From contig CALAJO010000006.1 in NCBI GenBank assembly GCA_937922745.1, positions 8,095 to 72,094 of the forward strand: a stretch of DNA of 64,000 bases, in the 5' to 3' direction. Position 1 is the first letter of the stretch. Every line of letters begins with the position of its first letter. The notes beneath the pieces were generated by a model that had not been told where the DNA came from, searched no databases, and worked only from the letters and a program-made list of their open reading frames with translations. The DNA is from an uncultured cyanobacterium. Its GTDB lineage: Bacteria > Cyanobacteriota > Vampirovibrionia > Vampirovibrionales > JAGQHJ01. Positions 1 through 42,553 of this stretch are shown in pieces. The position numbers and the translations under genes are program-made.

Positions 1-695
1 GGGATGGGGAAGTGGCCTTGTCCGATCAGCAGGAAGAAAAGCGGGGCCGGCGTCAGCGTATTACGGATGCCGATGCGCCGGATCTCCAGGGAATTGATAA
101 GCGGCTGCTGGAGCTGCTTCGCGGCCTGCGGCGCAACCTGGCCCGTGAGCGCAACGTCCCGCCCTATATCATCTTTAGCGATGTGACGTTGAGGGAAATG
201 GCAGCATATAAACCCCGCACGCTTTACGGATTCAGGAATATCCGAGGCATTGGGCAGCGCAAGCTGGAAGACCTGTGCCCGATGTTTCTTGAAGTGATCA
301 ATGACTACGAAGAGGCTGCGGGGAATCTTACAGGGCAAGTGGAACCGATCGAGCCGCCCTCCCGTTCCCAACGCCGGAGATCCTCCAAAATGGACACGAT
401 GGAAGAGGCATTTCGCATGTTTGCCGATGGCGCGTCGATAGAAGATGTCGTCTACCGCACGGGCCGCGCTGCAACAACGGTAACCAAGTACGCTTGTGAT
501 TACATTGCCGAGAATGGCATCGCCGAACCCGGTGAGTGGGTGGGGCCTTCCACGTTTGAGAGGGCTTGTGAGGCTTTTGAGGCCCTTGGCACGGAGCGGC
601 TTCGGCCAATATTTGATTACCTGGGCGGAGACGTCCATTACGATGAGATTGCGCTGTGCCGGGCGTTATATAAAAATCAAATAAGCCAGGCATAG
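1..695 (+). CDS. recQ: ATP-dependent DNA helicase RecQ, C-terminal part. Holds the HRDC domain plus an extra C-terminal domain. The gene starts upstream of the window; the frame is open from nt 3.
   Basis: Translation contains the HRDC-type motif PPYIIFSDVTLREMAAYKPRTLYGFRNIRGIGQRKLEDLCPMFLEVI, typical of the RecQ C-terminus. The reading frame stays open to the window edge. Confidence 0.7.
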   Translation, partial: DGEVALSDQQEEKRGRRQRITDADAPDLQGIDKRLLELLRGLRRNLARERNVPPYIIFSDVTLREMAAYKPRTLYGFRNIRGIGQRKLEDLCPMFLEVINDYEEAAGNLTGQVEPIEPPSRSQRRRSSKMDTMEEAFRMFADGASIEDVVYRTGRAATTVTKYACDYIAENGIAEPGEWVGPSTFERACEAFEALGTERLRPIFDYLGGDVHYDEIALCRALYKNQISQA

Positions 696-923: not shown

Positions 924-1769
924 ATGAGGTTGAATCACATGGGTGGCATTCACATTCGATTGGGGTTGGCCGGGCTTGCCCTTTCCCTTGCAGCACAAAT
1001 ACCCTCTTCTTTTGCTGACAACATGATGCCTCCACTGCCGGGCTATCCGCCGCAGGCCGTGCAACCTGCCGTTACGCCGCCTGTGTCTTACCGGCATTCG
1101 CCTCAGGTGTTTTATCCGGCAAGCCAGTATCCGCCTGCCCCTTCCCGAATTTACCAGCAGGCGCCGCAGGTTTTCCAGCCCGTATCCCTTCCGCCCGGAT
1201 CGACTATCTTGCCTTCCATCCCGATGCAAAGCGATATGAACCACCCGCTGCGGCAAAAAATTGTGGAGATTGCCCGGACCCAGCTGTGGGTGGATAAAGG
1301 GATTAACCGGAATTATGTTAACTTCGCCTTCAGCACGGGGAAGGATCAGGCATGGTGCGCGGATTTCGTGTCCACTATCCTTAAATGGTCGGTGGGTTCG
1401 CCTTGGGGGCACGAGTCCCTGGCGAACAATATCTACCTTTGGGGGCGGAATAACAACCAGTTAAGCCCCATGCCTTCCCCAGGGGATATTGTCCTGTTCC
1501 GCTATGGCCAGGGGGATGTTTCCCACGTGGCCATTGTCGAATCCGTTAACCCGGATCAGACGATTACCGCCATTGGAGGGAATGAAGGCCCTGGCAAAGG
1601 GGGCGTTGGGGCAGGCGGCATTGTGCAGCGCAGCCGCTATAAACTTTCCGATGCCAATATTGCCGGTTTCGTCTCCCCGATTCCATCCCCTTGGCCTGCC
1701 CAGGCCGCCACCCCAAACCAGCCTTCATCCGTTGGCAGCGGACCCAATATCAATCCAACCTATCGATAG
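924..1769 (+). CDS. Secreted CHAP-domain amidase/peptidase with a proline-rich linker
   Basis: N-terminal signal-like segment GLAGLALSLAAQ, a P/Q-rich low-complexity region, and a CHAP-like Cys/His core (WCADFVSTIL ... GDIVLFRYGQGDVSHVAIVE). Confidence 0.7.
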   Translation: MRLNHMGGIHIRLGLAGLALSLAAQIPSSFADNMMPPLPGYPPQAVQPAVTPPVSYRHSPQVFYPASQYPPAPSRIYQQAPQVFQPVSLPPGSTILPSIPMQSDMNHPLRQKIVEIARTQLWVDKGINRNYVNFAFSTGKDQAWCADFVSTILKWSVGSPWGHESLANNIYLWGRNNNQLSPMPSPGDIVLFRYGQGDVSHVAIVESVNPDQTITAIGGNEGPGKGGVGAGGIVQRSRYKLSDANIAGFVSPIPSPWPAQAATPNQPSSVGSGPNINPTYR

Positions 1770-1832
1770 CGCAATTTTAAAACTGGATGGTTTTTATTAT
1801 CCCACTCAACCTTAAAAGGGATATGAATACCC
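1574..1832 (+). repeat. Copy 1 of a ~260 bp duplicated segment, covering the CHAP gene 3' end plus the leader of the HEAT-repeat gene
   Basis: Near-identical to 3864..4123, about 95-97% from 1611 onward by direct comparison. Confidence 0.85.
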
Positions 1833-3758
1833 ATGCAGATCCGTCTCAATCCCGTGATGTTTCGTTCTCACATCCAAGGCACAGCACACACCAAAGCCAT
1901 AAGAGCCTCGTTCCCACCCTTGGGGGCAGACACCGTACACTTTGGACAAGGTGCGGATATATCAAGGGCTTTCCGCTATACTCCGGACGAGGAAAAAGTA
2001 ATCGCACTATTTCACCCCGGTCTCGGCTTACAGATTGGATCCATAGAACGAATACTTCCCTATCTCCCCAAAACAATTGCCGCCAAGGTTTGCCTGGAGC
2101 TTTTAAAGCCCGGTATGGCCGATGAGAAAGTAAAGGTTGCCCTAGCCGAGCATCTGGGCCAAGTTCGAGGCCAATACAATATCGATGGCATTATAAGAGT
2201 GATGACCGCTCCTGATCAGCCATTTGAAGTGCGGTTAAAAACGGCCAGCAAGGCTAATTTGATTCGGGATCCCGATTTTTATCTACAAACAGTCAGACTT
2301 TACTATGATTTGCAACCACAAAAAGTATGGTTTGGGCCTGAGGAAAGATCTGTATTCTTTGCAAGCAAGAGCCGTCCTCAATATGTCACGTTGGCGCAGA
2401 TGAGTGAGATCCTGGATTATCTTGTATATGATGAAAAGGTCCAGACTGCTGAAAAACATCAACTTGCAGCAGTGAAAGAAATTGCAGGTTTATTACCTGC
2501 ATACCCGGATAAGTTTTATCACTATGCTTCAGCATTAGCTGCTCATCCTGAAAAAAGCGTTCAACTTGCAGTTGTAAATGAATTATCCTGTTATAAATCT
2601 GCTGCTGAAGATGATCCTCAAAGCCTCCAAATGGTCGATGATCTGATTGTCTCACTCGCTACTTCTACAAGTGTTTCTAACGACGTACACGAAGCTGCGT
2701 TGCTGGAATTGGATAATCTTTCCAGCCAAGCCAGGTTGGAACAAGCACTTAGACAGATTACATCGGCCGAACCTAAGAACGTTATCTCTTCACTGGTTCG
2801 ATTTATACCGATGGTAAAACATAAAGGAACTCTCCAGCACCTTATTGGCCTGCTGGAGCCAGCCAAGCTAACTTCTGAAGCGGAGAGACACTATGCCAGC
2901 ATCGCTGTAACCATCCCCGATCGATCGCTCAGGCTAAAGGTTATCAGGCAATTGGCAAATAGTACAACGAAAGCAGCCTGTGATATTCTTGCAAATTCAA
3001 TCATCCACCGACGTGATGATCCTGACCAACCAGCAATGTTAGCCATTCTACAGGGTAAGGATGGTGCGGTATCGCCGCAGATGCAGCAATCTCTGGCAGC
3101 CAAGCTATCGCATCTCGCCCCAAACATACCCGACAGGCCTGCTCAAGGCCAATTCCTGGTGGTTATATTTAATAAATTACAGCAATCCCCCGCAGATATT
3201 GCAGCATTAGAAGCTGAGTTGCGTGAGTTACAGCTGAGTGTTCCGGAAGAAACAGAAACGGATCGTGACAGAGCTGTACAGCGGGGTTTTTTAAAGGACT
3301 TTGCATTGCGCAAGCTGCAAGAATTGGTGGAAAATAAAAGCTCAGATGATAAAGCTCGGGCCATTGCGGTAAAAACCATTCTATCTAACCTGGACACGCA
3401 ATACGACGATACGCGGGAGGTTTATTACGCTTTTGTAGAGCATTGCCTGAATGATCCCTCCCCCGAAGTTCGGAAACTCATCCCGGACAGCCTGAAAACA
3501 AAGCAGTTAAACGCAATCGATAGTCCACAATGCAAGCGGATCGTCACTCGTCTTCTAGCCGATAAGGCTGAGCCTGTTGCCCGGGAATCGTTGGACAAAC
3601 TCTGGCACTTCTTTCCTGAGGAGGAGCTGTTTGAGGCGGAATTGCACAGAATTTTTGTTAATGATCAAGAAATCCTACCTGTTATTAGGCAAAAAGCTTT
3701 TGGATGGTTAGTTCACCGTGTTTGGTCTCGAGAAAACAAACAAGCTAACTCGGTTTAG
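1833..3758 (+). CDS. HEAT/ARM-like repeat protein of unknown function, paralog A (641 aa); lower GC than its flanks
   Basis: Long uninterrupted ORF with repeated alpha-helical HEAT-like motifs such as DDTREVYYAFVEHCLNDPSPEVRKLIPDSL. Its N- and C-terminal ends resemble those of the downstream paralog. Confidence 0.6.
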   Translation: MQIRLNPVMFRSHIQGTAHTKAIRASFPPLGADTVHFGQGADISRAFRYTPDEEKVIALFHPGLGLQIGSIERILPYLPKTIAAKVCLELLKPGMADEKVKVALAEHLGQVRGQYNIDGIIRVMTAPDQPFEVRLKTASKANLIRDPDFYLQTVRLYYDLQPQKVWFGPEERSVFFASKSRPQYVTLAQMSEILDYLVYDEKVQTAEKHQLAAVKEIAGLLPAYPDKFYHYASALAAHPEKSVQLAVVNELSCYKSAAEDDPQSLQMVDDLIVSLATSTSVSNDVHEAALLELDNLSSQARLEQALRQITSAEPKNVISSLVRFIPMVKHKGTLQHLIGLLEPAKLTSEAERHYASIAVTIPDRSLRLKVIRQLANSTTKAACDILANSIIHRRDDPDQPAMLAILQGKDGAVSPQMQQSLAAKLSHLAPNIPDRPAQGQFLVVIFNKLQQSPADIAALEAELRELQLSVPEETETDRDRAVQRGFLKDFALRKLQELVENKSSDDKARAIAVKTILSNLDTQYDDTREVYYAFVEHCLNDPSPEVRKLIPDSLKTKQLNAIDSPQCKRIVTRLLADKAEPVARESLDKLWHFFPEEELFEAELHRIFVNDQEILPVIRQKAFGWLVHRVWSRENKQANSV

Positions 3759-3863
3759 ATGCGTTAGTTTTCCCAATACCTTGATATTGCAGGTTTAAAA
3801 AGCACTAATACTTCCATCGCCTTCCATTATCGGAGCGAGATAAGTTTTTCATGCTGCGGTATC

Positions 3864-4060
3864 GGTGGGAATGAAGACCTAGGCTAAGAAGGCTCCGGCG
3901 CAGGCGGCATTGTGTAGCGCAGCCGCTATAAACTTTCCGATGCCCAATATTGCCGGTTTCGTCTCCCCGATTCCATCCCCTTGGCCTGCACAGGCCGCCA
4001 CCCCAAACCAGCCTTCATCCGTTGGCAGCGGCCCCAATATCAATCCAACCTATCGATAGC
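3864..4060 (+). pseudogene. Degraded 3' fragment of a CHAP-domain gene, carried along by the tandem duplication
   Basis: Homologous to the last ~65 codons of the CHAP gene at 924..1769 but lacks its 5' part. A 1 bp indel (atgcccaatattgcc versus atgccaatattgcc) breaks the frame. Confidence 0.55.
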
Positions 4061-4123
4061 GCAATTTTAAAACTGGATGGTTTTTATTATCCCACTCAAC
4101 CTTAAAAGGGAATATTAAAACCC
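3864..4123 (+). repeat. Copy 2 of the ~260 bp duplicated segment
   Basis: Matches 1574..1832, including the identical leader cgcaattttaaaactggatggtttttattatcccactcaaccttaaaaggga immediately upstream of the ATG. Confidence 0.85.
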
Positions 4124-6040
4124 ATGCAGATCCGTTTCAATCCGGCGGCGGTTGCTCGTTCTCACTTCCAAGGCGTGCATGCCAAAACCGTAAGGGCCTC
4201 GTTCCCACCCTTGGGATTAGATACCGTGCATTTTGGCCAAACAACTGCCGTAGAGCCACGACATCAAGTTCTGAATGAAGAAGAACAGATGATTTTTCAC
4301 TTTTATCATCAGCTGGATCAGGAACAAAAAGTCACCTTTATCTCGAAAAACCTTGCTTTGCTTCCTCCTGTGCTGCAAGTCGAGATCTGTAAAGGGATTA
4401 TCATTCCGGAAGCGCCTAAGGAGCTGAAGGTGGCCTTGGCAAAAAACTTGGATGATTTTCAACGAGGAACAATGCTAAATGGGCTTCTTCGGGCATTAAT
4501 TCAACCTCAACAACCGCGAGACGTTCGGTTGCATGCAGGTAAACAAGCTGCTGTATCAACCGATCCCGACCTGTTTGTCGCTGCGGCAAAAACATATTAT
4601 GATGTAGAATTTCGTTCCGATGCTAAGGTTTCCTTCTTTTCTCCCTACTATCGCCCTCAATCCGTTACGGTCGATCATATTCGCGAAGTCATTGACCATA
4701 TGATTTTTGGAAAACATTTGGGCAGTTATATCCAACAAAATCGAGTCTGGGCTGCCGAAGAATTGAATTATTTATTGTCGGAACAGCCTGATGAGTTCCT
4801 CCGTTATGGGCTGGAACTTATCTCAGATTCCAATTTTGAAGTCCAAGAGGCCGTTGCAAAGAAAATTGAATTTTGGGGCCACATTACCAAAGGGAATGAA
4901 ACGAGCCAAGAAGCTGTTAACACACTCATCCAAAACTTAGTGGATAATACGTTATCTCCTAAGCCTTCTGCCAAAGCCCGGGAAATTGCGCTACTCAATC
5001 TTAAATTTCTTAAGGATCCTGCGAAACGTGAAAACATAATTGGCAAACTAACCCCAACGGAGTCCGAAGCGGTTATGGTTTCAGTTGCAGACTTTATGCC
5101 AGAACTCAGCCGTCTTAGCACCCAGCAACATCTTGTTCAGCTTTTAACCAGAGATCACTATACGCGTAATGCGTTAATGAAAGTTGTCACGAAGATACCG
5201 GATAAGGAATTACGTTTACAAACCATTCGCATGCTGGCTAAATTATCTATTGATACCAAGCCTATGGTAGAAGCGATTGTCGCTGAACCGCACCATCCCG
5301 ATTATCAGTTATATCTCCAGATCCTTCAAACCACAGAGGGCGAGCATGCCGTTTATGTTCTTACTCAACGGGCTCTTGCAGAAGCTCTGGCTGAGGTAGC
5401 GGTAAATAAAAAGCCGCCCGAAGACGAAGAAGGTAAATGGCTATTGGCCATCATATCAACCGTGGGCCGCTCCGAAGCCGAGATTCACGCCATTGAGGAA
5501 CAATTGCGTGAATTAAGGGAAAGGGCAAGGCAAATTGCCGATACGGATGAGGCCCGTTATGAGCAAGTTAAAAAAGGCTTTATTCGGGATTATGCGATTA
5601 AGGTGCTGCAACAATTAATGAAAAACACCGCCGCTGATTCCATAGCACGCGTTACGGCAACTAAAGCCATTTTAAAGAACCTGGATGTGAAGTATGACGA
5701 TACACGTCAAGTTTACTTTGCCTTTTTGAGAACTTGTCTCGCGGATCAGTCACCTGATATTCGCAAGCTGATAGCGGAAGACTTGGTGAAAAAGAGGCTA
5801 AATGCAGAAGAAGAGCTACGCTGTTCTGAGATTGTCGATCGTCTTCTGGGTGACAGTAACGAACAGGTTGTGATGAGTACGCTGGACAATATTAATGCAC
5901 TTTACCCTACGGCCAAGACAAGACACCAAGTTTTGTGGCGAACCTTCCAAGATGAAAGCCTGAGTATAAACCTGCGGAGCAAGGCGCTTGAACTTCGTTC
6001 GAAAAGTATACATAAGGAATATCGACAAGTGGCCAGCTAA
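4124..6040 (+). CDS. HEAT/ARM-like repeat protein of unknown function, paralog B (638 aa)
   Basis: N-terminus MQIRFNPAAVARSHFQGVHAKTVRASFPPLGLDTVHFGQ and C-terminus YDDTRQVYFAFLRTCLADQSPDIRKLI parallel those of paralog A. The middle of the protein is diverged. Confidence 0.6.
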   Translation: MQIRFNPAAVARSHFQGVHAKTVRASFPPLGLDTVHFGQTTAVEPRHQVLNEEEQMIFHFYHQLDQEQKVTFISKNLALLPPVLQVEICKGIIIPEAPKELKVALAKNLDDFQRGTMLNGLLRALIQPQQPRDVRLHAGKQAAVSTDPDLFVAAAKTYYDVEFRSDAKVSFFSPYYRPQSVTVDHIREVIDHMIFGKHLGSYIQQNRVWAAEELNYLLSEQPDEFLRYGLELISDSNFEVQEAVAKKIEFWGHITKGNETSQEAVNTLIQNLVDNTLSPKPSAKAREIALLNLKFLKDPAKRENIIGKLTPTESEAVMVSVADFMPELSRLSTQQHLVQLLTRDHYTRNALMKVVTKIPDKELRLQTIRMLAKLSIDTKPMVEAIVAEPHHPDYQLYLQILQTTEGEHAVYVLTQRALAEALAEVAVNKKPPEDEEGKWLLAIISTVGRSEAEIHAIEEQLRELRERARQIADTDEARYEQVKKGFIRDYAIKVLQQLMKNTAADSIARVTATKAILKNLDVKYDDTRQVYFAFLRTCLADQSPDIRKLIAEDLVKKRLNAEEELRCSEIVDRLLGDSNEQVVMSTLDNINALYPTAKTRHQVLWRTFQDESLSINLRSKALELRSKSIHKEYRQVAS

Positions 6041-8002: not shown

Positions 8003-8668
8003 ATGAAGGAAGATAAACGCATTTTTAGCAAGATGGCAAACAAACCCAGGCAAGGCTTTTCCCTGGCAGAAATGCTGGTTTCCCTGGCGCTGATGGGCGC
8101 TTTGGCTTCCATGCTCCTGCCGATGCTGACCCATAACGTGGGTAAGGATAAGCTGATGTACATGGGCAAGGATGGAGCGGCTGAGCTGGTGCAGGCTTAT
8201 GCAACCTATCTTAAGACCAACGTGCCCACGGCCAATACCTCTGCACAGGATATTATTAACAACCTCAATTACATGCGCATCATTAACAATGGCTCGCAGA
8301 CCTTACAGGTAGAGAAAGTGAACAACACGCCTGCCTATGGCTCCTGTACCAGTGGCGGCAACCCATGCACCGTGTTTACTGCCGTTTGTCGTGCCGAAAC
8401 ACCTTGCGCGCTGCTGCATAGCGGCGCCCTCATTCAGTACGATGCGAATGCAACCTTTGGCGGCAATCCACCCCGATATAACACCAACGCCCTGCGCTTC
8501 ATCCTGGATCCGGACGCGGATGGGCCGCAAACATCCGTCTCGTTTGTCCTGTTTTATAGCGGCAGGCTTAGTACCCGACCTTATGCGCAAGCCGCAGTTT
8601 TAACGAATGACGACCTTGCCAATACAACCGTTGACCCGGAATACCTGATTGAATGGACAGACGGGTAG
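8003..8668 (+). CDS. Type IV pilin / pseudopilin with a prepilin-type N-terminal cleavage and methylation motif
   Basis: QGFSLAEMLVSLALMGALA matches the class III signal peptide (G|F..E, then a hydrophobic helix). An alternative ATG lies at 8033. Confidence 0.65.
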   Translation: MKEDKRIFSKMANKPRQGFSLAEMLVSLALMGALASMLLPMLTHNVGKDKLMYMGKDGAAELVQAYATYLKTNVPTANTSAQDIINNLNYMRIINNGSQTLQVEKVNNTPAYGSCTSGGNPCTVFTAVCRAETPCALLHSGALIQYDANATFGGNPPRYNTNALRFILDPDADGPQTSVSFVLFYSGRLSTRPYAQAAVLTNDDLANTTVDPEYLIEWTDG

Positions 8669-8974: not shown

Positions 8975-9295
8975 GTGTATGGTTTTGGAATGGGGCGAGT
9001 TGAGGTTACCTTTGGTACGGCTGACATCCTTGATTACCAAGATGGCGTCAGGATGAAGCAATATCCCTGCCTCATCTTGGAGCAGCCTGGAATGAACAGG
9101 AAGGTGCGAATTGTAAGAGGGGGATATAGCTTTAACCCTAAGAGATATCGTTTTGAACTCCCTGGAAGTAATTTTTGGTACGCATTAGATGACGGCAATC
9201 GTGATGAAAGGGAATTAGAAGGAAAATTAAAAGAGGCCTATGCAACGATTGCTGCGAATGCACGACAGATGGGAAGAAAAGATTTTACCAATTGA
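8975..9295 (+). CDS. Hypothetical small protein in an AT-rich stretch
   Basis: ORF only. The local GC drop (8680-9300) suggests inserted DNA. Confidence 0.3.
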   Translation: MYGFGMGRVEVTFGTADILDYQDGVRMKQYPCLILEQPGMNRKVRIVRGGYSFNPKRYRFELPGSNFWYALDDGNRDERELEGKLKEAYATIAANARQMGRKDFTN

Positions 9296-9314: not shown

Positions 9315-10310
9315 TTAACTTAAACTGAAAGACAAAAACATCTCTTCCAGGGCAGGTTCTTCCTTCACCCGGTCGCGGATCATATTTTTCGCATGCTCCA
9401 CCTGCATAATCAGCCGTTTGATTCGTTGATACTTAACGGCATTCTCGACGTGGGTTTCCAACTGTTCCTGCAAAAAGGCCTGGAGCCTGGTTAACACGTC
9501 CGGTAAGTCAATTCCGGTATCGGCCACCAGTTGGTTGAGTAATGTCGTTTGGGCCAGAAAATCGCCGTAGTGGCCGGGCGCGAACAGGGTGCCAAATGTT
9601 TCACGCTCAATCGGCGAGAGGTCGATGGTATAACAGGAGGCCGGTGTATTAAACGGCACCAGTTGACAGCGGGAAACAATCGTATCCAGGAGCTTGTCTT
9701 CCGAATCGGTGAGGAGGAAGAACAGGACATCCAGCGGCGGTTCTTCCAGGGTTTTGAGAAACTTGTTGGCCAGCTTGTCCGGAAAAACCTTCCTGTCCAG
9801 CGGCAATAAGTCAAACAGTACGCCTTCCGTTTGCCGCCAATCCTTCGGCGGCGGGAAAGGCTGGACGTCATGCTCCGTGGCCGGGCATTCCTGCGCTCCG
9901 GTCAGGATGATAATCCGATGGAAACCGCCACTATGCAGGGCCAGCTCATTCAGCAGGTTATCAAGCTGATCCACTTTAATAACCTGGGAGGGTTTCCCGG
10001 ACTTCGTCTTGGATGTCCCGGTCTCTGGATCAATGTCCGGCAGGTAAGTAAGGTTGCTCACGGTCATCACGCCAGGATGGGCATTGTCTTCAATCCATCG
10101 GCAGGACTGGCACTGGCCGCATGCGGCGGCCGGGTTCGGCCGTTGCGAACAGTTGATAATTTGCGCCAGCCTTAAAACAAGCCGGTACGATGTGGCAAAA
10201 TCCTTGCCCCGAAAAATATAGGCATTGACCATGCAGTGGTTTTGCAACGCCTGGGTAAAAAAGCGCGTGGGTAAGGGTTGCTGCTGCTCAAAATCAATCA
10301 GGGTTTTCAT
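9315..10310 (-). CDS. holB: DNA polymerase III delta-prime subunit
   Basis: Clamp-loader hallmarks: Zn-finger CGQCQSCRW, a Walker-like region and the SRC-type SRCQ motif. The start at MKTLIDF lies 5 nt after the holA stop. Confidence 0.8.
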   Translation of the reverse strand: MKTLIDFEQQQPLPTRFFTQALQNHCMVNAYIFRGKDFATSYRLVLRLAQIINCSQRPNPAAACGQCQSCRWIEDNAHPGVMTVSNLTYLPDIDPETGTSKTKSGKPSQVIKVDQLDNLLNELALHSGGFHRIIILTGAQECPATEHDVQPFPPPKDWRQTEGVLFDLLPLDRKVFPDKLANKFLKTLEEPPLDVLFFLLTDSEDKLLDTIVSRCQLVPFNTPASCYTIDLSPIERETFGTLFAPGHYGDFLAQTTLLNQLVADTGIDLPDVLTRLQAFLQEQLETHVENAVKYQRIKRLIMQVEHAKNMIRDRVKEEPALEEMFLSFSLS

Positions 10311-10315
10311 TGTCG

Positions 10316-11281
10316 TCAGGTTCCCAGCAATACTTCCAGTGCCAAGTGACCGTCCATTTGGCCGGTTTTGGTTTTCCACTCCATCTCCACCAGGGCGCGT
10401 TTTAATTTAACCCAGCGCTGGATAGGGACGCGTGAGAACGGCGACGTCAGGTGCTTTTTAATGGTAAACGGCTTTTGCCCGGTGCGCTGGGCAATGGCGT
10501 CCATGCCGGCCCCCTTGGAATGCAGCCACATAACACGAAAAATATTATTGAAGTAGCTTTGTACCGTGGCAAATATCTCAATCGGGTGGCGGCGCGACAG
10601 GATTTCATTCAGATCCCGAAACGTGTCCGCAGGTTTTTGCTGGAGGATCCAATTATTGACCAGCAAAAATAGGTTATCGCTATGGTTGCTCAGCTGCAAC
10701 ACATCCTGCCGGGTAATGGGACGATTAAGCGCATAAATTGAGAGTTTGTCCACTTCGTTGGCCAAAGGGCGCAGTTCCGTACCCATCAGTTCAACCAGGG
10801 TATCCGCCGCTTCCGGCAGAAGCTGGATATTGTTCTGCCGGGCATGTTGCTGGAGGAACTCCGAGGCCTTATCGGTCTCCCAAAACTTGAAGGTTTCATA
10901 CTTTTCCACCCGAAACTTGGGGTGCTTCACCAGCCACTTGGGAAACTTGATCTTGCCGTCAATCTTGCTGCTGAGAAACAGCACGACTTTACTGTCATCC
11001 ACGGCCTCCAAGAGGCCTTTGAGTTCATCCAGTTGCGCGTCGGTAAAGGCATCCTTGGAGGCCTGGTGAAGAAGCGAAAAATCTTTAATCTCAACCAGGG
11101 TTTGCCCACCCAGCGCCAGGGATACGCTGCCGACTGCCTCCAACACCTTTGCAAGGGAGGGGCTGGAATAAACCCGGTGGCACAGGCTGGCCATGGCGGG
11201 ATTAACCACTTGCTGGCGCAACCGGTTTGCCGCCTGCTCCAGCAGAAAGCTCTCATCTCCGTATAAAACGACTACGGGCAT
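10316..11281 (-). CDS. holA: DNA polymerase III delta subunit
   Basis: Delta-subunit-like N-terminus MPVVVLYGDESFLLEQ with a helical C-domain. Sits immediately upstream of holB in the same operon. Confidence 0.7.
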   Translation of the reverse strand: MPVVVLYGDESFLLEQAANRLRQQVVNPAMASLCHRVYSSPSLAKVLEAVGSVSLALGGQTLVEIKDFSLLHQASKDAFTDAQLDELKGLLEAVDDSKVVLFLSSKIDGKIKFPKWLVKHPKFRVEKYETFKFWETDKASEFLQQHARQNNIQLLPEAADTLVELMGTELRPLANEVDKLSIYALNRPITRQDVLQLSNHSDNLFLLVNNWILQQKPADTFRDLNEILSRRHPIEIFATVQSYFNNIFRVMWLHSKGAGMDAIAQRTGQKPFTIKKHLTSPFSRVPIQRWVKLKRALVEMEWKTKTGQMDGHLALEVLLGT

Positions 11282-11346: not shown

Positions 11347-12189
11347 ATGTCTCGGCCCGTGATTGCAGTGATGACGGACTTTGGCCACCGCGACGGCTTT
11401 GTGGGCGTGATGAAAGGCGTCATCCTCTCACTTTGCCGGGATGTGACGTTGGTTGACGTTGCCAATGAAATACCGCCTCAAGATGTGCGGCACGCGGCCT
11501 GGGTCTTGAACCAGGCTTTCGGCCCTTTTCCTGAAGCGACCTGTTTTTTGTGCGTGGTGGATCCGCATGTTGGGAATCCGGAACAGAAAAAGCTGCTCAT
11601 TCATTTTCCGGCGGTTCGCAAAGCCATTGTTTGTCCGGATAATGGCCTAGCCAGTTGGGTTTTGCAAAAACATCCCGATGCAAGCGCTTACGCGATAGAG
11701 AATCCTTTGCTTTGCAGAAGTACCGCGGAGCCCAGCCAAACCTTCCATGGCAGGGATATTTACGCGCCGGTTGCCGCGCATTATATTAACGCATTAATAC
11801 AGAATCGGCTTCAGGGCTTTTTATCGTCCCTGGGAGAACCCCTGCCTCTCTCCCGGCTGGTTTTACTGGCGGCCGGCGAGCCCTGCCGCACCGAGTCCGG
11901 TCGGGTTATCGGCAGAATCGAAACGGCAGATATTTATGGGAACCTGATTACCAATATCCCCAACCGTTGGCTGGCGGGATTTGAAAAAAGGCATATTGTC
12001 GTTAATCAAAAACCATACACAGCCCAAAAGGTATCCCATTACTCGGCTATATCTGATGGATGCCATGAATCGATGCAACTCGGAATTGTCGCTGGCAGCC
12101 ACGGCTGCGCAGAGCTTTTTGTTAAAAATGGTTCGGCTGCCAAGGCCTTAAGCGTGCTGCCGGGTGCAATGGTTGAAATATGGCCATAA
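11347..12189 (+). CDS. SAM hydroxide adenosyltransferase (DUF62; fluorinase/chlorinase-like fold)
   Basis: N-terminal IAVMTDFGHRDGFVGVMKGV and mid-protein TFHGRDIYAPVAAHYINA correspond to the DUF62 family represented by SalL/FlA. Confidence 0.75.
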   Translation: MSRPVIAVMTDFGHRDGFVGVMKGVILSLCRDVTLVDVANEIPPQDVRHAAWVLNQAFGPFPEATCFLCVVDPHVGNPEQKKLLIHFPAVRKAIVCPDNGLASWVLQKHPDASAYAIENPLLCRSTAEPSQTFHGRDIYAPVAAHYINALIQNRLQGFLSSLGEPLPLSRLVLLAAGEPCRTESGRVIGRIETADIYGNLITNIPNRWLAGFEKRHIVVNQKPYTAQKVSHYSAISDGCHESMQLGIVAGSHGCAELFVKNGSAAKALSVLPGAMVEIWP

Positions 12190-14122: not shown

Positions 14123-14848
14123 GTGGTATCGATAGTCCGTTTTGGCTATTTGCCTTTGCTCATTCCGAAAAAACCTTTGTTTAGTGGCCAAGCCTATAAT
14201 CGCGAAGTCTTATTGGATGCGTTTGCCTCACGTCGAACCCCTCCTTTTTGTGCATATTGCGGTAATAATTTTGATAAGAAACAATCTGTCACTTTTGATC
14301 ATGCACGTCCTGACATGAGAGGAGGACGCGATGAGCCAGCCAATGGTATTTTGGCTTGTCAGCCATGTAATCATCGGCGGAGCAATTTCTCGCTACTATA
14401 TTTCCTGCAAGGCACATTATCCCACGATGATTATCTACGGCCTGATGCCATTGAGGGTAACACGCCACTCAGTGGCATCCAGCAGAATGCAAAAAAGGTA
14501 AAAAGGCGTATTTACAGTTTTTCTCGATACTTGCGATTTTTTGTGGAGAACCAAATTCGCATCAATCCAATAACGGGCTCAACATGGTTTAACCAGGCTA
14601 TCGATAACCTTTTATTTCCTATTTTACTTCCCCGCGAAGAGAAGCAGGAGAAATACATAGCTTTTGACCGGTATAAAACACGGTTTAAGGCATTGGTGAG
14701 GTTGCTTACGCCAACTTCGCCAGAATTTTGGCTGGGCCGCAAATTTCAGGGTATCATCAGTGCGGATTTTAACCAGCAGCCTCTTAAAAAAAATGCCTTT
14801 ATCAAGGCATTACAGGAATTGAGGATGGAATATCAGTTTAATCAGTAA
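14123..14848 (+). CDS. Stand-alone HNH endonuclease; low-GC gene
   Basis: HNH motif CAYCGNNFDKKQSVTFDHARPDMRGGRDEPANGILACQPCNHRRSN. GC is visibly below that of the flanks. Confidence 0.6.
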   Translation: MVSIVRFGYLPLLIPKKPLFSGQAYNREVLLDAFASRRTPPFCAYCGNNFDKKQSVTFDHARPDMRGGRDEPANGILACQPCNHRRSNFSLLYFLQGTLSHDDYLRPDAIEGNTPLSGIQQNAKKVKRRIYSFSRYLRFFVENQIRINPITGSTWFNQAIDNLLFPILLPREEKQEKYIAFDRYKTRFKALVRLLTPTSPEFWLGRKFQGIISADFNQQPLKKNAFIKALQELRMEYQFNQ

Positions 14849-17433: not shown

Positions 17434-20084
17434 ATGAATCGCAGGCTATATCTGTGCAGTTCGCCGTATCAGGCGTTTCAGGCGGTTTGCGGGACGGATG
17501 TCGGTAGTGATTGCGTTGTCGTAACACCGGGGGCGAAGGCCGCTCGGGCAATCGGTTTTCCGCATCGTTCGCTGGTGCAGTTTGCGCGCAAAACCCTGGA
17601 AAGCAAGGCGTAGGGGTGGCTTCCGCTTTGGTGGCACATCGCCTGCTGCGAGAGGCCATTGTGGAGAACGGTTTCTACTCGGACGTGGAGGGCGCTGCAA
17701 CGGTTATAGCGGCCGTAATTAAGGAGCTGCTTCGGGTCGCTCCTGAGAGGGATAGTCTGTGCGCCCATCCCAATACGCGCATCAGCACCTTGGCGAATAT
17801 TTCACGGCTGTACCGTGAGAAACTTCGTGGTCAAAACTGGGTTGATGCTGCGGAGATCTACAACGAAGCGTGCAAGGCTGCCGTTGAGCGTCAGACGATG
17901 CTGGTTTACGGATATATTGGGTTTTCACCGGATGAGGCTGCATTTCTCGATGCTTTGGCGGGCGAGGGAAGTTTGCTGGTTCTGCCGTATAAACTTCACG
18001 ATGGCGTTCTCAGCCATCGGGAGGTGGTGGAAATGCTTGAAACCAACGGCTGGCAAGTTGAAATTCACGAAGAAAAGCCGCTTTCCCTCGGAGAGAAGGC
18101 GGCTTCTGCCTTTTCTGCGGGTGCGCCCTTGCCGCTGGAAGTTAAAGCCGTTGTGTATCCGCATCAGGAGGCGGAGGTGCGGGGCGTTTTGCGCGAGGTC
18201 AAGCAGTTGCTTCTCCAGGGCGTACCTTCGGACGAGGTGGTACTAGTGGCGCGGGATGAGGCGCTGTACGGCCCTGTCGTCCTTTCCGTGGGCTGGGAAT
18301 ATGACTTGCCGGTTAGAGTGCTTTATGATGTGCCGCTCTTAGAAACGGCGTTTGGCGCCTGGTTCAATCTTCTTCTGGAAGTGGTTCGGGACGGGATGCC
18401 GTATGAAACGACGTTGCAGTTGCTGTCTCACCCGTTTGCCGAAGCCTTGAGCGACTGGCAATATCAGCAGGCAAGGAAGACGCATCCCAATTCCCCGTTG
18501 GACTGGGAGCGGTTGGGCGTGACGGCCTCTCTGTTTGGTTGGCCGGAGCAGGACAAGGGCGGCGCGTGGATCAAGCGGATCCAATCGGTCTTCAAGTCTT
18601 TTGATTTTCCCGGCCGCCTGGCGCATCGTCCAAGGGATTTGGCGGCGTATCAGGCTCTCCTGCAACACTTGCCCTGGCTGGAAAACACTTTTTCTAAGCC
18701 CGTATCGCTTCCTGTGTTGCTGGATGAGCTGAACGATATGTTGCGTATCCTGTCCGTGCCGGCACAACCTGGCAGGGGTGGGGTGGAGCTGCGCACGCCA
18801 AAGGATTTGACGGGCGCCCGATACCCGTATGTCTTTGTGCTGGGGATGGCGGATGGTGTGCTTCCCGCCTCGATTCCCGAGGATACGAGCCTGGATTTTG
18901 CGGATCGGGCGGAATTGATGGTAATGGAAGGGCTTCCGCTGAAGGGAATTGCACAAGCGGCCGGTGAGGAGAGGCTGGCGTTTGACGCCCTGCTCCAGAT
19001 AGCAACTAAAGCCATTACCCTCTCGTATCCTAAGCTCATCCGCAGCAGGGGGATGCTGCCCAGTCCGTACATCCAGGAATTGGGCCTGCTGCCTTCGCGG
19101 CCGGGCGACAGTGCGTTTGGCAGCCTGGAGGAAGCCCGGTGCGTGTGGCTGCCGTTGGCTGATGCCGGGGATGATCCGTTGCTGCCTGAAATTCGACGGG
19201 CATATGCGGTGGAAAGTAGCCGTGAAAGTGCTGAATCATTTGATATGTATGACGGCATCCCGGGAATTCCCATTGATGTGTCCGCACGAATCTTTTCGGT
19301 CTCGCAGTTAACGCGCTTTGGCCAGTGTCCGTTCCGGTGGTTTGCCGGGGATGTGTTGAAACTGGCGGAGCCGGACGAGGCGGAGACGGATTTGAGCGCG
19401 TTGCAGCGCGGCAACCTGTATCACAAAGTCCTGGAGTGGCTAGCGGAAAGGACGCTGACAGAAGCCTCTCCCAGGGAGGCGATGCTGAGCCTGCTGGAAG
19501 ACGTGTTTGCCGAGGCGGAGGCCCTGCTGGGCGTGGAGTCGGTACAGGCCTGGCCGGTACGCCGGGCGGAGCATATCGCCCGGCTGAGGAGAGTGCTTCA
19601 ATCACCGGGATTTTTGCCGGAAGGCCACCGTATCCGTGTCCAGGAGCTGTCGTTTGAGAGTGAGTGGTATGGGCTGCCCTTAAAGGGAAAGATAGACAGG
19701 GTGGATGAAACGCCGGAGGGCTTGGTATTTATAGACTACAAGACCAGCGGTTCCAAACCCCTTGGCGTGCAAGACGAAAAAAGGGAATTGAAGCTGGATA
19801 TTCAGTTGCCGATTTATGTACAGGCCGCCTCGGTTGGATTGTTCCCCGGCGAGGCGGTGAAAGGGGCATATTACTTCTCTGTGACCAAGGGCCTTGTGCT
19901 AAATGAAGCCGTGCCGGGAGAAAACCGGGAACTGGCGAAATTTGCCGAATCGTTCAAGGCGCGCCTGGCTCAGGGATGCTTTCCAATCCAGCCGGACAAG
20001 GAGCGGAAAGCTTGCGAATATTGCGACATGGATCTGGTGTGCCGCCAGGGAGCCCGTTTAAACCGGAAGGAGGAAACCGCATGA
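17434..20084 (+). CDS. addB: AddB/RexB-type helicase-nuclease subunit (PD-(D/E)XK nuclease with C-terminal Cys cluster). The N-terminus is disrupted by an apparent frameshift near 17600-17615.
   Basis: The 73 aa ORF (MNRRLYLCSSPYQAF...) continues in the +2 frame into the 857 aa ORF. The C-terminus holds a nuclease motif (IDRVDETPEGLVFIDYKTS) and Cys residues (CPFRW ... CEYCDMDLVC). Confidence 0.65.
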
Positions 20085-23000
20085 CCCTGACGCAGGCGCA
20101 ACAGCAAGCTGCTTATACGCTCGCCAGCGTGGCGGTGACTGCCGGGGCCGGCACCGGCAAGACCCATATGCTGTCTGAGCGATACCGGTTTCATATCGCG
20201 GAGCAGGGGTTAAGACCGCTACAGATTGTGGCGGTGACGTTTACGGAAAAGGCGGTGGCTGAACTGAAAGCCCGCATCCGATCCAACCTGCTGGGGCAGA
20301 TGCCGGGACAGGCTACCCTAATGGCTGAGTTGGAGGCGGCCCCTATCTGCACATTTCATGCCCTTTGCGCACGAATTTGCCGGGAGCATCCCCAAGAAGC
20401 CCAGGTCCCGCCCGATTTCGAGATCCTTGATGACCTGGAAAGCCAGGTTTGGTGGGCCGAGCAGTTAAACCGGGCGATGGATAAGCTTCCCCCGGAAATT
20501 TATGAGAAAATCCCTTTTACCCGGCTTCACGATGCGTTAAGCAGGTTTCTGGCGGATCCGCTGACCGCGCGGCAAGCCTTGGCGCATGGATCGGAAAGCT
20601 GGCCGGCCATCATCTCTTTGGAGCGCCAACTGGCGGAGACGCGCCTGCTGAAGAGCCGTGCGTGGCTTGATGCCCTTATTGCGGTGACGGAGTATGCCGG
20701 GCAGCCGGAGGACGCCCTGGAGCAAAATCGGCAGACCGCGCTGGCTGCAATGACCGCTATTGAAGAAGGTAAGGAGATAACACCTTATCTGGACGCCATT
20801 TCGGGTTTGTCTTTTCGGGGCGGGAGCGTTAAAAATTGGCCGGGCGGTGGATTTGATATCGTCAAAGCGGCGTTAAAGGCGCTTCGCGACAAGGTTAAAG
20901 AAGCCCAGAGAAAAGGCTTGATTAACCTGGCGCTGGGCCCGGTGGATGAGGCGCTGGCTTCCTGCCTGCCATTGCTGAAGGAGGCCTTTGAGGCCGTTGA
21001 CACGATGATTGGCGAGGCAAAGCGGGAGAAGCGGATGCTGGATTATGCCGACCTGGAAGTCCATGCCCTGCGTGCGCTGGAGAACCCCGCTGTTTGCGAT
21101 TATTATGCCCGGCGCTGGAAAGCCTTTTTGATTGATGAATTCCAGGACACCAACCGGGTTCAGGCCGAATTGTTGTCCCGGTTGTGCGGCCAGGCCATCG
21201 TCACCATTGTGGGAGATGAAAAACAGTCGATTTACGGCTTTCGACGCGCCGATTTGCGTTGCTTCCAGTCCTTCCGGGAGCGTATCGCGGAGGCTGGCGG
21301 AGAAGCGGTCTCGATTGCCCTAAGTTTTCGCACCCATCGGCAGTTGGTAGAGGCGATGAACAGCACTTTCCAGCCCTTATTAGGATCCCTCTTCTCTCCG
21401 CTGGAGGCAGCGCGCCGGGAAACGCCGCATGCGGGCCCCCACTTGCGGGCTTATGTGCTGGAAGCCGACACGTCAACACGCCGCGCCGAGCGCTTGCAGG
21501 CGGAAGCCCGGATGATAGCCGGCCTGGTGGATGGGATGCTGACAAGCGAGCTACCGGTCTTCGACAAGCAGTTGGGCAGCCTGCGCCCTATTCGTCCCGG
21601 GGATATCGGGATTCTTTCGCGCACCTGGCAACCGCTGGATTGCTATGTGGACGCCCTCCAGACCCGTGGCGTCCCGGCCATGCATGCCGGTGGAGGCAGC
21701 CTGCTGGATACGCGGGAGGCCAAGGACGGCGTTGCCCTTGTTCGCTTCCTGGCGGATGCGTCGGATAATCTGGCGCTGGCGGCCCTGTTACGTAGCCCGT
21801 TTTTTGCCGTGAGCGACCAAGCGCTTCAGCGCTTTGCTGCGGGACTGCCTAGGGGAACATCCTGGTGGGCCTGCCTGCGACAAATGGAAACCGTCCCGCC
21901 TGAACTCCAACGGGCCAAGGCGGTTTTATCCGAAATGCTGGCCTTGCGGGCTGTACACCCTCCTTCGCGTCTGCTGCAATGGATGGATCGTTTGACCGGC
22001 TACACCGCGGTTATTGCGAATTTGCCTAACGGCTTGCGGCGGGAAGCTGACTGGCGCGGCTTTTGCGATCTGATAGGCATGCTGGAGACCGGGGCGGCCG
22101 ATCTGTTCTCCGTGATGCGACGGCTCAGGCAACTAATGGCGCAGACGGTGGAGATTCCCCGCTTGCCGATGGAGCCGGATAACGCCGTTTCCCTGATGAC
22201 CATCCATGCGGCCAAGGGGCTGGAATGGCCAATCGTTATCGTGCCGGATTTAACGCGGCGATCCGCTCCCGACAACCAGCCGTTGCGCCTGCATCCCGAG
22301 CTGGGCGTGGGTCTCAAGTTGTCGATGGATGAGGATGACGAGACGCTGCAAAAGCCCGCGATTTACAGCATCCTGGAGTGTCGCCATCGGGAGGAGCGGC
22401 ACGACGAGTTGAAACGCCTGCTTTATGTGGCCCTGACCCGCGCTCGCGATCAAGTGATCCTGACTGCGCCGGATGAAAAAGGCGAAGCGTTGGAGCTGCT
22501 TCGGGACGGTCTGGCGGCTGCCGATGTCCCGATTGAGGTGGTGACGCTGCAATCGCTGGATGCACAGGATGACGGGAAAGTCCCTGCGCGTCAGGATGCG
22601 ATTGCCGCCACGCTCCTTCAAGGCACGGCTTCCAGCGGATTGACCGAGTTGCCCGTAACGGCCATTACAGAGTTTGCCACTTGCCCCCAGCGGTTCCGCT
22701 TTGCCTACATTGATGGACATCCCGGGCTTCAGTCCCTCGTCGGCGAATCGGCTTTTGCCGCCCGCGTTGGTTCCCTGGTGCATCAGGCGCTGGAACTTGA
22801 CTTGCGGGAGCTGAAGGCGCTACGTGCGCTCGATCCCGACCTGCCTTTGGGAGCGGTCAAGGAAGCCCTGCAGTTAATCGAGGATTTCGATACATGTGAA
22901 GCGTTTGCCCCGTTCAGAAAGCCCTATTTCCAGCGTGAAGTCCCCATCAGCCTGGATATCGCTGCGGCAGGGCAGAAACTCTATCTTAACGGCGTTATCG

Positions 23001-23293
23001 ATTTGATGGGCGACGATTTTGTGCTGGATTACAAGTCCGATCGGGAGATGGCGCCGGAACACCATCGCTTACAGCTTTGGGCTTATGCCCGCGCCACAGG
23101 TCGCAAGCAGGCCCATATTGCCTATATCCGCCATGGGCAGGTGCATACCTTTAGCCCGTCGGATTTATCTGCTGCGGAATCGGAGGCAACCGCGATTGCA
23201 TGCAGCATCTTGTCCGGTCAGTTTCAGCCCGCGCCGGATGCCAGGCATTGCAGCTTCTGCCCGTACCACGCCATTTGCGAGGATAAAGCATAG
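20081..23293 (+). CDS. addA: AddA/RecB-type UvrD-family helicase with C-terminal PD-(D/E)XK nuclease
   Basis: Walker A AGAGTGKTHML with UvrD motifs, a C-terminal nuclease (IDLMGDDFVLDYKSD) and a Cys motif (CSFCPYHAIC). The ATG overlaps the addB stop in an ATGA arrangement. Confidence 0.8.
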   Translation: MTLTQAQQQAAYTLASVAVTAGAGTGKTHMLSERYRFHIAEQGLRPLQIVAVTFTEKAVAELKARIRSNLLGQMPGQATLMAELEAAPICTFHALCARICREHPQEAQVPPDFEILDDLESQVWWAEQLNRAMDKLPPEIYEKIPFTRLHDALSRFLADPLTARQALAHGSESWPAIISLERQLAETRLLKSRAWLDALIAVTEYAGQPEDALEQNRQTALAAMTAIEEGKEITPYLDAISGLSFRGGSVKNWPGGGFDIVKAALKALRDKVKEAQRKGLINLALGPVDEALASCLPLLKEAFEAVDTMIGEAKREKRMLDYADLEVHALRALENPAVCDYYARRWKAFLIDEFQDTNRVQAELLSRLCGQAIVTIVGDEKQSIYGFRRADLRCFQSFRERIAEAGGEAVSIALSFRTHRQLVEAMNSTFQPLLGSLFSPLEAARRETPHAGPHLRAYVLEADTSTRRAERLQAEARMIAGLVDGMLTSELPVFDKQLGSLRPIRPGDIGILSRTWQPLDCYVDALQTRGVPAMHAGGGSLLDTREAKDGVALVRFLADASDNLALAALLRSPFFAVSDQALQRFAAGLPRGTSWWACLRQMETVPPELQRAKAVLSEMLALRAVHPPSRLLQWMDRLTGYTAVIANLPNGLRREADWRGFCDLIGMLETGAADLFSVMRRLRQLMAQTVEIPRLPMEPDNAVSLMTIHAAKGLEWPIVIVPDLTRRSAPDNQPLRLHPELGVGLKLSMDEDDETLQKPAIYSILECRHREERHDELKRLLYVALTRARDQVILTAPDEKGEALELLRDGLAAADVPIEVVTLQSLDAQDDGKVPARQDAIAATLLQGTASSGLTELPVTAITEFATCPQRFRFAYIDGHPGLQSLVGESAFAARVGSLVHQALELDLRELKALRALDPDLPLGAVKEALQLIEDFDTCEAFAPFRKPYFQREVPISLDIAAAGQKLYLNGVIDLMGDDFVLDYKSDREMAPEHHRLQLWAYARATGRKQAHIAYIRHGQVHTFSPSDLSAAESEATAIACSILSGQFQPAPDARHCSFCPYHAICEDKA

Positions 23294-26876: not shown

Positions 26877-26958
26877 TTTCCTCGATTAATTTCTTTCCGC
26901 CCTGTTCATAAACGAAAGCGTTGCTCAAAATGGCAACGCTTTCGCTAGAATTTCTTTT

Positions 26959-30956: not shown

Positions 30957-31016
30957 CCTCTTCCCGATTACATGATTATGTGGATGCAGTATAGCGTAAA
31001 TTCTGCCGGCCGCCGA

Positions 31017-32651: not shown

Positions 32652-32795
32652 CTTCTAAACCTCTCTGTGTGCTACCGCGTAAACCCGTTGAAACCAGACC
32701 AATCTGCATAATATAACCGATTATGCCATTAGTTTTCGTTTTGTCTACCGATTTCTTGAAGGAATTTCGGGATTTTTTGGATTTTTTTTCGCGGT

Positions 32796-42545: not shown

Positions 42546-42553
42546 ACCATCTA

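Follow-up and report, generated by a model that had tools for sequence, protein, structure and literature searches.

A tandemly duplicated pair of orphan genes for predicted HEAT-type solenoid proteins in a Vampirovibrionales genome

Gene content of the locus

Vampirovibrionia are non-photosynthetic sisters of cyanobacteria, and to our knowledge the molecular biology of the predatory members of this class is almost unknown. We analyzed a 64-kb stretch of DNA (hereafter, the window) whose source genome, judged from its sequence, belongs to the Vampirovibrionales; the rpoD protein encoded in it was 76–84% identical to rpoD in Vampirovibrionales MAGs. Two ORFs of similar length, here termed A and B, lie one behind the other in the left part of the window. 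The features of the locus were as follows.

12–695: 3' end of recQ, beyond the CHAP gene on the left side
924–1769 (+): CHAP-domain hydrolase gene (Pfam CHAP, 1.2e-12), with a signal-peptide-like N-terminus; stop codon TAG at 1767–1769
1570–1832 (+): 5' repeat, copy 1, consisting of the CHAP 3' end and a 63-nt intergenic region; 93% identical over 263 nt to 3861–4123
1833–3758 (+): predicted HEAT-solenoid paralog A, ORF of 641 aa
1833–1949 (+): codons 1–39 of A, encoding the N-terminal tag MQIRLNP...RASFPPLGADTVHFGQ, basic and predicted to be disordered; 80% nucleotide identity to 4124–4240
3759–3859 (no strand): decayed counterpart of the sequence that follows B, ending in an rpoD 3' remnant (about 3835–3859); junction at 3859/3860
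3860–4059 (+): dead CHAP 3' fragment, equal to residues ~217–281, broken by two in-frame stops and a single frameshift
4060–4123 (+): intergenic region, copy 2 (64 nt), sharing with copy 1 its ribosome-binding site and putative -10 element
4124–6040 (+): predicted HEAT-solenoid paralog B, ORF of 638 aa; all-alpha AF2 model, best Foldseek matches PR65 chains
6041–6130 (no strand): right end of the duplicated unit, a 56-nt spacer and the 3'-terminal 34 nt of convergent rpoD
6097–7146 (-): sigma-70 family (rpoD-like) gene with Pfam regions 1.2, 2, 3, and 4; convergent right neighbor

The first-pass annotation had described the pair as flanked by recQ and rpoD. The rpoD-like gene is indeed the right neighbor, whereas the immediate left neighbor is the CHAP hydrolase gene. 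A comparison of the CHAP protein with metagenome contigs gave no match, and look-ups by exact sequence of CHAP (two start sites) and of rpoD (two forms) found no record. A pairing of CHAP toxin with HEAT immunity proteins was considered and rejected, because immunity to a wall hydrolase needs a periplasmic protein, whereas signal peptides are absent from both A and B.

Paralogy and coding status of A and B

The two genes had been taken for paralogs of about 640 aa, and their products aligned end to end (34% identity, 55% positives, E 5e-105). Nucleotide identity in the gene bodies was 38–57%, and synonymous divergence between the copies was saturated (pS 0.77), with a pN of 0.45 and a dN of 0.68. 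Because amino acids have been kept over these saturated synonymous sites, A and B are protein-coding genes that are still under purifying selection. In the codons for DTVHFGQ, for example, four of seven differ synonymously between A and B, and the amino acids are unchanged. A pseudogene or non-coding reading was ruled out by the two intact 1.9-kb frames together with this amino-acid conservation.

The most conserved segment of the bodies was codons 480–560 (50% identity), which overlap the HEAT_2 match of A described below. The conserved N-terminus was also found as annotated, with the same motif and 28 invariant positions among the first 39 residues. A diversity-generating retroelement was rejected as the source of the divergence, since no reverse transcriptase is present and the divergence spans the whole gene.

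Tandem duplication in place

A and B lie in head-to-tail copies of a 2.29-kb unit (~1570–3859 and 3860–6130), and the direct repeats are spaced 2289–2291 nt from start to start. The last ~200 nt of the CHAP gene form the left end of this unit. At 3859/3860, the rpoD 3' remnant is joined to the CHAP 3' remnant, the arrangement of a tandem segmental duplication. Local alignment of 3743–3859 with 6035–6130 gave a score of 51, compared with 18.7±3.4 (maximum 37) for shuffled sequences. A tblastn search with the CHAP protein located its residues 245–281 with 100% identity at 3946–4056, and the two stops and the frameshift in the CHAP fragment were visible in the frame translations. These junction remnants show that the duplication giving rise to A and B took place on site, between CHAP and rpoD.

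The ancestral segment would have begun within the CHAP gene, taken in the final 34 nt of convergent rpoD, and carried a single gene for a HEAT-type alpha-solenoid of ~640 residues; its copying in place would be an old event. In an independent assembly of run ERR9287890, Logan contig L001 matched window positions 1792–3973 at 100% identity. This contig spans the A-to-remnant junction, and either end lies 30 nt inside an exact repeat.

A 5' block of high identity between the copies

The 5' ~0.4 kb of the unit (CHAP tail, intergenic region, and first 39 codons) was far more alike between the copies than the remainder. Identity formed a gradient, from a decayed 3' flank through 85% at 3861–3944 and 99% over 168 nt (1654–1821 versus 3944–4111) to 80% in the tag codons and 38–57% in the bodies. 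For about codons 1–39, dS was 0.47 and dN was 0.18; the tag that they encode has a pI of 10.8 and an AF2 pLDDT of about 30. At the DNA level, a repeat that begins within CHAP sequence, ~260 nt ahead of either start codon, has the conserved N-terminus as its tail, a point that the earlier annotation had missed.

We infer that gene conversion would keep the 5' block alike, so that promoter-proximal signals, ribosome-binding signals, and the N-terminal tag would stay common to A and B. The intact CHAP copy would most likely be the donor, because conversion in the reverse direction would leave CHAP with the stops and the frameshift. The 99% stretch could in part be due to constraint on a regulatory element instead of gene conversion. 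The 63-nt intergenic region of copy 1 holds the ribosome-binding site of A and probably also its promoter. A promoter scan found no + strand match to the sigma-70 consensus in either repeat copy, a terminator scan found no + strand site between CHAP, A, and B, and an Rfam search of 1400–4400 (E up to 1) gave no RNA family for the upstream block. The sequence TATTAT, read by eye only, stands about 30 nt ahead of either ATG.

Predicted fold and family assignment

Among Pfam profiles, HEAT_2 (PF13646) at residues 498–586 of A (31.6 bits; gathering score, 27.7) was the only match of the pair above the gathering score, and it covers fewer than 90 of about 640 residues. In B, HEAT (PF02985) reached 22.1 bits, below its gathering score of 23.5. 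The AF2 models of A and B, built on a two-sequence alignment and of moderate confidence (mean pLDDT, 68–69, with 69.4 for B; pTM, 0.46–0.49), were both all-helical solenoids with residues 1–50 disordered. In these models the predicted antiparallel helix pairs stack into a right-handed solenoid, as in HEAT proteins. The description of A and B as HEAT-repeat proteins thus agrees with the alpha-solenoid fold predicted by both AF2 models, as checked with Foldseek, and with the HEAT_2 match in A.

The best structural matches of the models were PP2A PR65, AP-complex beta, and TOG domains. For the B model, the top Foldseek matches were PR65 chains (E 9e-7 to 5e-6), and TM-scores of both models to PR65 were only about 0.3. 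As modeled, A and B resemble PR65 at the fold level only. PR65, the scaffold subunit A of PP2A, has 15 HEAT repeats and shares its fold class with A and B; homology at the sequence level was not found, and the neighborhood of A and B contains no phosphatase gene. Generic bacterial HEAT_2 proteins, such as E. coli YibA, differ from the pair in that B misses the Pfam threshold and A and B have no detectable homolog outside their own genome.

Neither protein has a transmembrane segment or signal peptide, and their pI values are 6.3 and 6.5. In keeping with the earlier statement that no enzymatic motif was recognizable, searches of Pfam, NCBIfam, PADLOC, PHROGs, and PDB sequences assigned A and B to no catalytic or defence family. 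The PADLOC-DB anti-phage models gave no family for either protein at E up to 1. As to phage or viral families, the best PHROGs match had an E of 0.11, BFVD gave no fold match with E ≤0.001, and the viral contig scan was empty.

Homolog searches

An exhaustive profile search (hmmsearch) of 1.84 billion representative proteins matched only A and B themselves, and single-protein searches with A and with B each recovered only the query. Profile-pattern scans of genome, metagenome, and viral contigs, a weak test that needs exact peptide words, found nothing; the negative that counts is that of the hmmsearch. The 80 rpoD loci of Melainabacteria that were inspected contained no shared neighbors, no A/B homolog, and no N-terminal motif. 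The phyletic check therefore gave neither homology to a characterized family nor conserved synteny (0 homologs in 1.84 billion proteins; 0 of 80 rpoD loci sharing the gene order); near A and B themselves, as the first-pass annotation had reported, no partner genes were recognized. In the literature, no paper connecting Vampirovibrio with these proteins was found, nor any that cites run ERR9287890. A and B are a new family of known fold.

Base composition

The overall GC of A and B was 0.463 and 0.451. Their GC3 was 0.424 and 0.426, and GC1 and GC2 were ordinary. The 34 other window ORFs of at least 200 aa had a GC3 of 0.663±0.082, which places A and B at z ~ -2.9. The AT-richness relative to the rest of the window that had been pointed out before is thus real and is located at third codon positions. 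Equally low GC3 occurred elsewhere in the window in an HNH endonuclease gene (14123–14848) and in three short ORFs.

Discussion

The results are best explained jointly by an old tandem duplication in place, gene conversion of the 5' block, a soluble scaffold function, and a long-standing low GC3, a combination that we regard as reasonably probable. That the pair is an assembly artefact, in which the assembler joined two strain alleles of a single gene via shared flanks, is very improbable: the assembly is of the metagenome type and a 168-nt near-exact repeat can confuse assemblers, but 3759–3943 is unique sequence with graded decay (rpoD remnant, then CHAP remnant with stops) and no abrupt 100% join, the Logan assembly of ERR9287890 reproduces 1792–3973 exactly with the junction included, and alleles as divergent as this (34% identity) would be extraordinary for a single species. 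The low GC had been read as a sign of horizontal acquisition, that is, of an island from an AT-richer donor. The low GC3 itself holds (0.42 versus 0.66±0.08, with normal GC1 and GC2), orphan status is typical of accessory DNA, the HNH endonuclease gene, a typical mobile gene, is also low in GC3, and AT-rich donors exist in the class, other Melainabacteria having 27–49% GC (PMC4451040). The transfer does not follow from it: the duplication junction proves that the second copy arose in place, saturated dS between the copies puts any arrival of the ancestor long ago, and a donor homolog was absent from 1.84e9 representatives and from the genome, metagenome, and viral contig scans. Integrase, tRNA, and transposase genes were not found nearby, nor was viral or phage similarity. 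We therefore judge foreign origin as marked by low GC to be unlikely. Composition by itself is no proof of transfer, and recent transfer of A and B is unlikely; an acquisition in the distant past, from a donor very rich in AT, may have taken place, with amelioration still incomplete. Because synonymous sites between the copies are saturated, A and B have long been resident in the lineage, and we infer that their low GC3 is a long-standing property of lineage-restricted genes rather than a sign of recent arrival.

Judged from fold class alone, and within the 64-kb window, A and B are most likely soluble protein-binding scaffolds that would share expression signals and a disordered N-terminal tag. 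Each would be a non-enzymatic scaffold binding other proteins, which is the weakest step of the proposal; the shared basic 39-residue N-terminal peptide would dock both to one common partner or machinery, and the diverged solenoids would bind different ligands. Membership in the characterized cyanobacterial HEAT family of phycobiliprotein lyases and degradation factors (CpcE/CpcF/NblB) has a near-negligible probability: CpcF did appear, only 33rd and among generic solenoids, the PBS-lyase HEAT-like profiles in Pfam and NCBIfam were unmatched even at E up to 1, A and B are more than twice as long as CpcE or CpcF, and Vampirovibrionia are non-photosynthetic and have no phycobilisomes (PMC4451040). 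A minor chance falls to the view that a predatory or host-associated bacterium exports or translocates A and B as effectors, with the N-terminal 39 residues as export signal and HEAT solenoids that bind prey or host proteins and diverge fast under an arms race, the homogenized 5' block holding promoter and signal constant. The one characterized member of the Vampirovibrionales is an epibiotic predator of Chlorella that, according to a published proposal, transfers proteins into its prey (PMC4451040). The orphan status, tandem duplication, and fast protein divergence (dN 0.68) of the pair would suit effectors, as would a conserved basic disordered N-terminus on divergent bodies, top fold matches to eukaryotic scaffolds, and a position downstream of a secreted CHAP hydrolase, with which A and B possibly form one transcript because no terminator-like site was found between them. 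Against this, no Sec or Tat signal and no Sec-type hydrophobic N-terminus is present, and known type IV secretion signals are C-terminal. The only secretion-type machinery within the window is a Tad/Flp pilus locus at 41.5–50.3 kb, 35 kb from A and B; HEAT proteins are also common in the bacterial cytoplasm, and saturated dS prevents measurement of positive selection.

Under either function, partner-binding scaffolds or prey-directed effectors, A and B are concrete candidates for lineage-specific biology, being large, clearly selected, and without a relative among 15 billion predicted proteins. Their practical value is modest until a partner or localization is established. The locus is also an unusually clean tandem duplication in which both junction remnants persist, with concerted evolution limited to the regulatory and N-terminal end and a low GC3 that is not readable as recent transfer.

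It is a long shot that A and B are the first Vampirovibrionales-specific translocated effectors mimicking eukaryotic HEAT scaffolds (e.g., PR65) in algal prey, with the tag as a new export signal and the 5' block as a recombination handle that fixes promoter and signal while the solenoids diversify. In type III effectors, paralogs with a conserved 5' promoter and N-terminal module and divergent bodies are described as products of terminal reassortment. Like A and B, such effectors have promoter-proximal DNA and an N-terminal peptide far more identical than the rest, and they are tandemly duplicated and lineage-restricted; unlike them, A and B have no identified secretion system or signal. Moreover, terminal reassortment is a fusion of unrelated C-termini, whereas the bodies of A and B are homologous over their full length, so that the pattern seen here comes from local homogenization.

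A tandem pair of paralogous HEAT-repeat genes

Two open reading frames, A and B, were found on the same strand at exactly the coordinates reported in the first-pass annotation. That annotation had named recQ and rpoD as the flanking genes; both are present, but a gene for a secreted CHAP-domain hydrolase (CHAP), which it did not mention, stands between recQ and A.

Genes at and around the pair (window coordinates)
12..695 (+), recQ 3' end, HRDC and HTH_40
924..1769 (+), secreted CHAP-domain hydrolase gene
1833..3758 (+), A, ORF of 641 aa
4124..6040 (+), B, ORF of 638 aa
6097..7146 (-), sigma-70 gene (rpoD), convergent
8003..8668 (+), pilin-like gene, 221 aa, prepilin-type N-terminal methylation motif
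9315..10379 (-), holB
10316..11281 (-), holA
11347..12189 (+), SAM hydroxide adenosyltransferase gene

BLASTP aligned A and B from end to end (34% identity, 55% positives, E 5e-105), confirming that they are paralogs, and the best-conserved segment of the gene body was codons 480-560 (50% identity). The N-terminal peptide previously quoted as common to both was also recovered: of the first 39 residues (the N-terminal tag), 28 are invariant.

Anatomy of the duplication

A 263-nt block preceding B (3861-4123) was 93% identical to the 263-nt block preceding A (1572-1832). Copy 1 of the block consists of the CHAP 3' end and the 63-nt intergenic region. The CHAP part is dead in copy 2: the frame equivalent to residues 217-244 has two stop codons, followed by a 1-nt insertion, past which the last 37 CHAP codons are 100% identical in a different frame. 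A 117-nt stretch from the end of A onward (3743-3859) aligned with 6035-6130, a segment made up of the end of B, its 56-nt spacer and the final 34 nt of the convergent rpoD. This alignment had a local score of 51, compared with 18.7±3.4 for shuffled sequences (maximum 37, n=300), and ended in the block GCGAGATAAGTTTTTCATGCTGCGG, matching GCGAGATAGTTTTTCAGGCTGCGG. Because an rpoD 3' remnant thus lies to the left and the dead CHAP 3' fragment to the right, 3859/3860 is a head-to-tail junction; the unit of about 2.29 kb agrees with the repeat spacing of 2289-2291 nt. We therefore have direct evidence that the duplication occurred in place, between CHAP and rpoD.

An assembly chimera is very unlikely, because a 2182-nt contig from an independent assembly (Logan, run ERR9287890) matched window 1792..3973 with zero mismatches and reproduced the junction exactly. 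Both ends of this contig fall 30 nt inside an exact repeat, the kind of position at which k-mer assembly is expected to end.

Age and concerted evolution of the two copies

Identity between the copies was peak-shaped along the unit.

Identity between the copies
3861-3944, 85%
3944-4111 (against 1654-1821), 99% over 168 nt
Codons 1-38, 80% nt; dS 0.47, dN 0.18
Remaining gene bodies, 38-57% nt; pS 0.77 (saturated), dN 0.68
3' flank, decayed, with indels

A and B are selected protein-coding genes. Within the tag, the stretch coding for ASFPPL was identical between the copies at 18/18 bases, and four of the seven DTVHFGQ codons differed synonymously with the amino acids unchanged. It follows that the tag, too, is translated and under selection, and that homogenization of the 5' block is more recent than the divergence of the bodies. 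The simplest account is that the unit was duplicated long ago and that gene conversion has since acted repeatedly around the promoter-proximal region. Identity rises sharply from 85% to 99% at the frameshift of the CHAP remnant, which would fit conversion tracts being tolerated only where the live CHAP gene is left undamaged. Constraint on a regulatory element may also contribute to the identity of the 5' block. Rfam identified no known RNA in this block, and a consensus promoter scan gave no match on the + strand; by eye, TATTAT and AAAGGG were seen about 30 nt and about 12 nt before each ATG, respectively. A single CHAP-A-B transcript is possible, because the scan detected no terminator-like site between these genes. 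The 168-nt repeats should permit RecA-mediated loss of A or amplification of the unit.

Composition and the question of horizontal transfer

The first-pass annotation had described the pair as AT-rich and had taken this as a sign of horizontal acquisition. Comparison of GC and codon adaptation with the other window ORFs upheld the AT-richness: GC was 0.463 (A) and 0.451 (B), and GC3 was 0.424 and 0.426, respectively, versus 0.663±0.082 in the other ORFs of 200 aa or more (n=34; z about -2.9). The deviation lay at third codon positions, GC1 and GC2 being ordinary. On a codon-adaptation index derived from the window, no ORF scored below A, and B came third from the bottom. Composition was nearer the genome norm in the first 39 codons (GC3 0.56) and in the upstream repeat (GC 0.53).

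The proposed acquisition was not supported. Since duplication occurred in place and the copies have reached synonymous saturation, their ancestor was long resident in the lineage; no donor, integrase, tRNA or phage signal was present for the pair, so that recent acquisition finds no support. Two explanations remain for the nearly equal low GC3 of both copies despite this long residence. Low GC3 may be maintained in both, speculatively because genes restricted to a lineage evade the GC bias that accompanies recombination in core genes, or through some selection on expression. Alternatively, the ancestor may have been imported long ago from a very AT-rich donor, and both copies would then have ameliorated only partly, in parallel.

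An HNH endonuclease gene at 14123..14848 (+) (Pfam PF01844, 8e-11) has a GC3 of 0.42, as low as the HEAT pair, and may be mobile or foreign among housekeeping genes. Three short ORFs of 106-127 aa, at 8975..9295 (+), 38769..39101 (-) and 40381..40764 (-), have a GC3 of 0.37-0.46 and lack a Pfam match; likewise compositional outliers, they may represent further lineage-specific genes or non-coding DNA.

Predicted fold and distribution

The only Pfam match above threshold was HEAT_2 on residues 498-586 of A (31.6 bits, cut-off 27.7), overlapping the best-conserved segment; B scored slightly under the HEAT cut-off. AlphaFold2 models built from the two-sequence alignment were all-helical solenoids for both proteins (A: mean pLDDT 67.8, pTM 0.46, residues 190-420 at 80-92; B: mean pLDDT 69.4, pTM 0.49, residues 180-340 and 530-630 at 79-93). 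Together, the match and the models support the HEAT-type solenoid fold predicted for A and B. Residues 1-50 were unstructured in both models (pLDDT about 30), and the first 52 residues are basic (pI about 10.7), against a pI of 6.3 for whole A and 6.5 for whole B. With no transmembrane segment or signal peptide in either, both proteins are predicted to be soluble. As had been noted, no enzymatic motif was recognizable: Pfam and NCBIfam gave no catalytic motif or domain.

The sigma-70 protein was 76% identical over its full length to a Vampirovibrio chlorellavorus MAG protein; partial matches in several Vampirovibrionales MAGs had 81-84% identity, and more distant matches were Gastranaerophilales. 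These identities show that the source is a Vampirovibrionales bacterium without a close species representative in GTDB. None of 80 rpoD loci (1.3 Mb) carried CHAP, A, B, holA or holB beside rpoD, and neither an A+B HMM nor the N-terminal peptide matched there. Not even the closest Vampirovibrionales genomes, whose rpoD is 74-84% identical, shared the gene order around rpoD; in them, CHAP, holA, holB and the SAM hydroxide adenosyltransferase gene were absent within 10 kb of rpoD.

An exhaustive A+B profile search covered 1.84 billion representatives, standing for about 15 billion proteins; besides A and B themselves, its one match was weak (E 4.6e-4) and was a generic, highly repetitive HEAT protein. 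Word-indexed searches recovered the queries alone, each a singleton cluster; scans of genome, metagenome and viral contigs returned nothing, and PDB sequences, PADLOC and PHROGs gave no match. A and B are orphans at the reach of sequence methods, where a two-sequence profile of a repeat fold would miss relatives below about 20% identity.

Possible function

A and B constitute a new family of a well-known fold class, so far specific to this genome, at a locus with an unusually legible duplication history and a 5' module evolving in concert. Their function we infer indirectly. The 5' DNA block and the N-terminal peptide are common to both, and A and B may be non-enzymatic protein-binding scaffolds, in which the common disordered tag would dock them to one shared partner or machinery while the diverged solenoids would bind different ligands. 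The main rival is that A and B are effectors. The sole characterised member of the order is predatory and has been proposed to deliver proteins into Chlorella (PMC4451040), and effectors would suit a pair that is orphan, fast-diverging, duplicated and positioned behind a secreted hydrolase gene. However, neither an export signal nor a linked secretion system was recognizable for A or B, and the sole secretion-type machinery in the window, a Tad/Flp pilus locus at 41.5-50.3 kb, is not known to export proteins of this kind.

Other features of the window

The Tad/Flp locus (41481..50340, +) looks complete, with RcpC/CpaB, a secretin with a pilus N-terminal domain, a ParA-like CpaE, the CpaF ATPase and two TadB/TadC-type T2SSF proteins. 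The prepilin-type gene at 8003..8668 (+) is isolated, 33 kb away. An AddAB-type pair lies at 17511..23293 (+), where an 857-aa PD-(D/E)XK nuclease overlaps a 1105-aa UvrD helicase plus PD-(D/E)XK protein. A sugar-nucleotide/polysaccharide cluster (24666..37500) contains unusual fusions, namely a 736-aa glycosyl hydrolase family 1 plus RmlD protein and an 813-aa glycosyltransferase plus UDP-galactopyranose mutase protein, together with a galactokinase, a nucleotidyl transferase, an epimerase/dehydratase and a PhyH-type dioxygenase. A TPP riboswitch at 55496..55610 (+) (Rfam RF00059, 71.5 bits) lies directly upstream of the ORF at 55560..56162.
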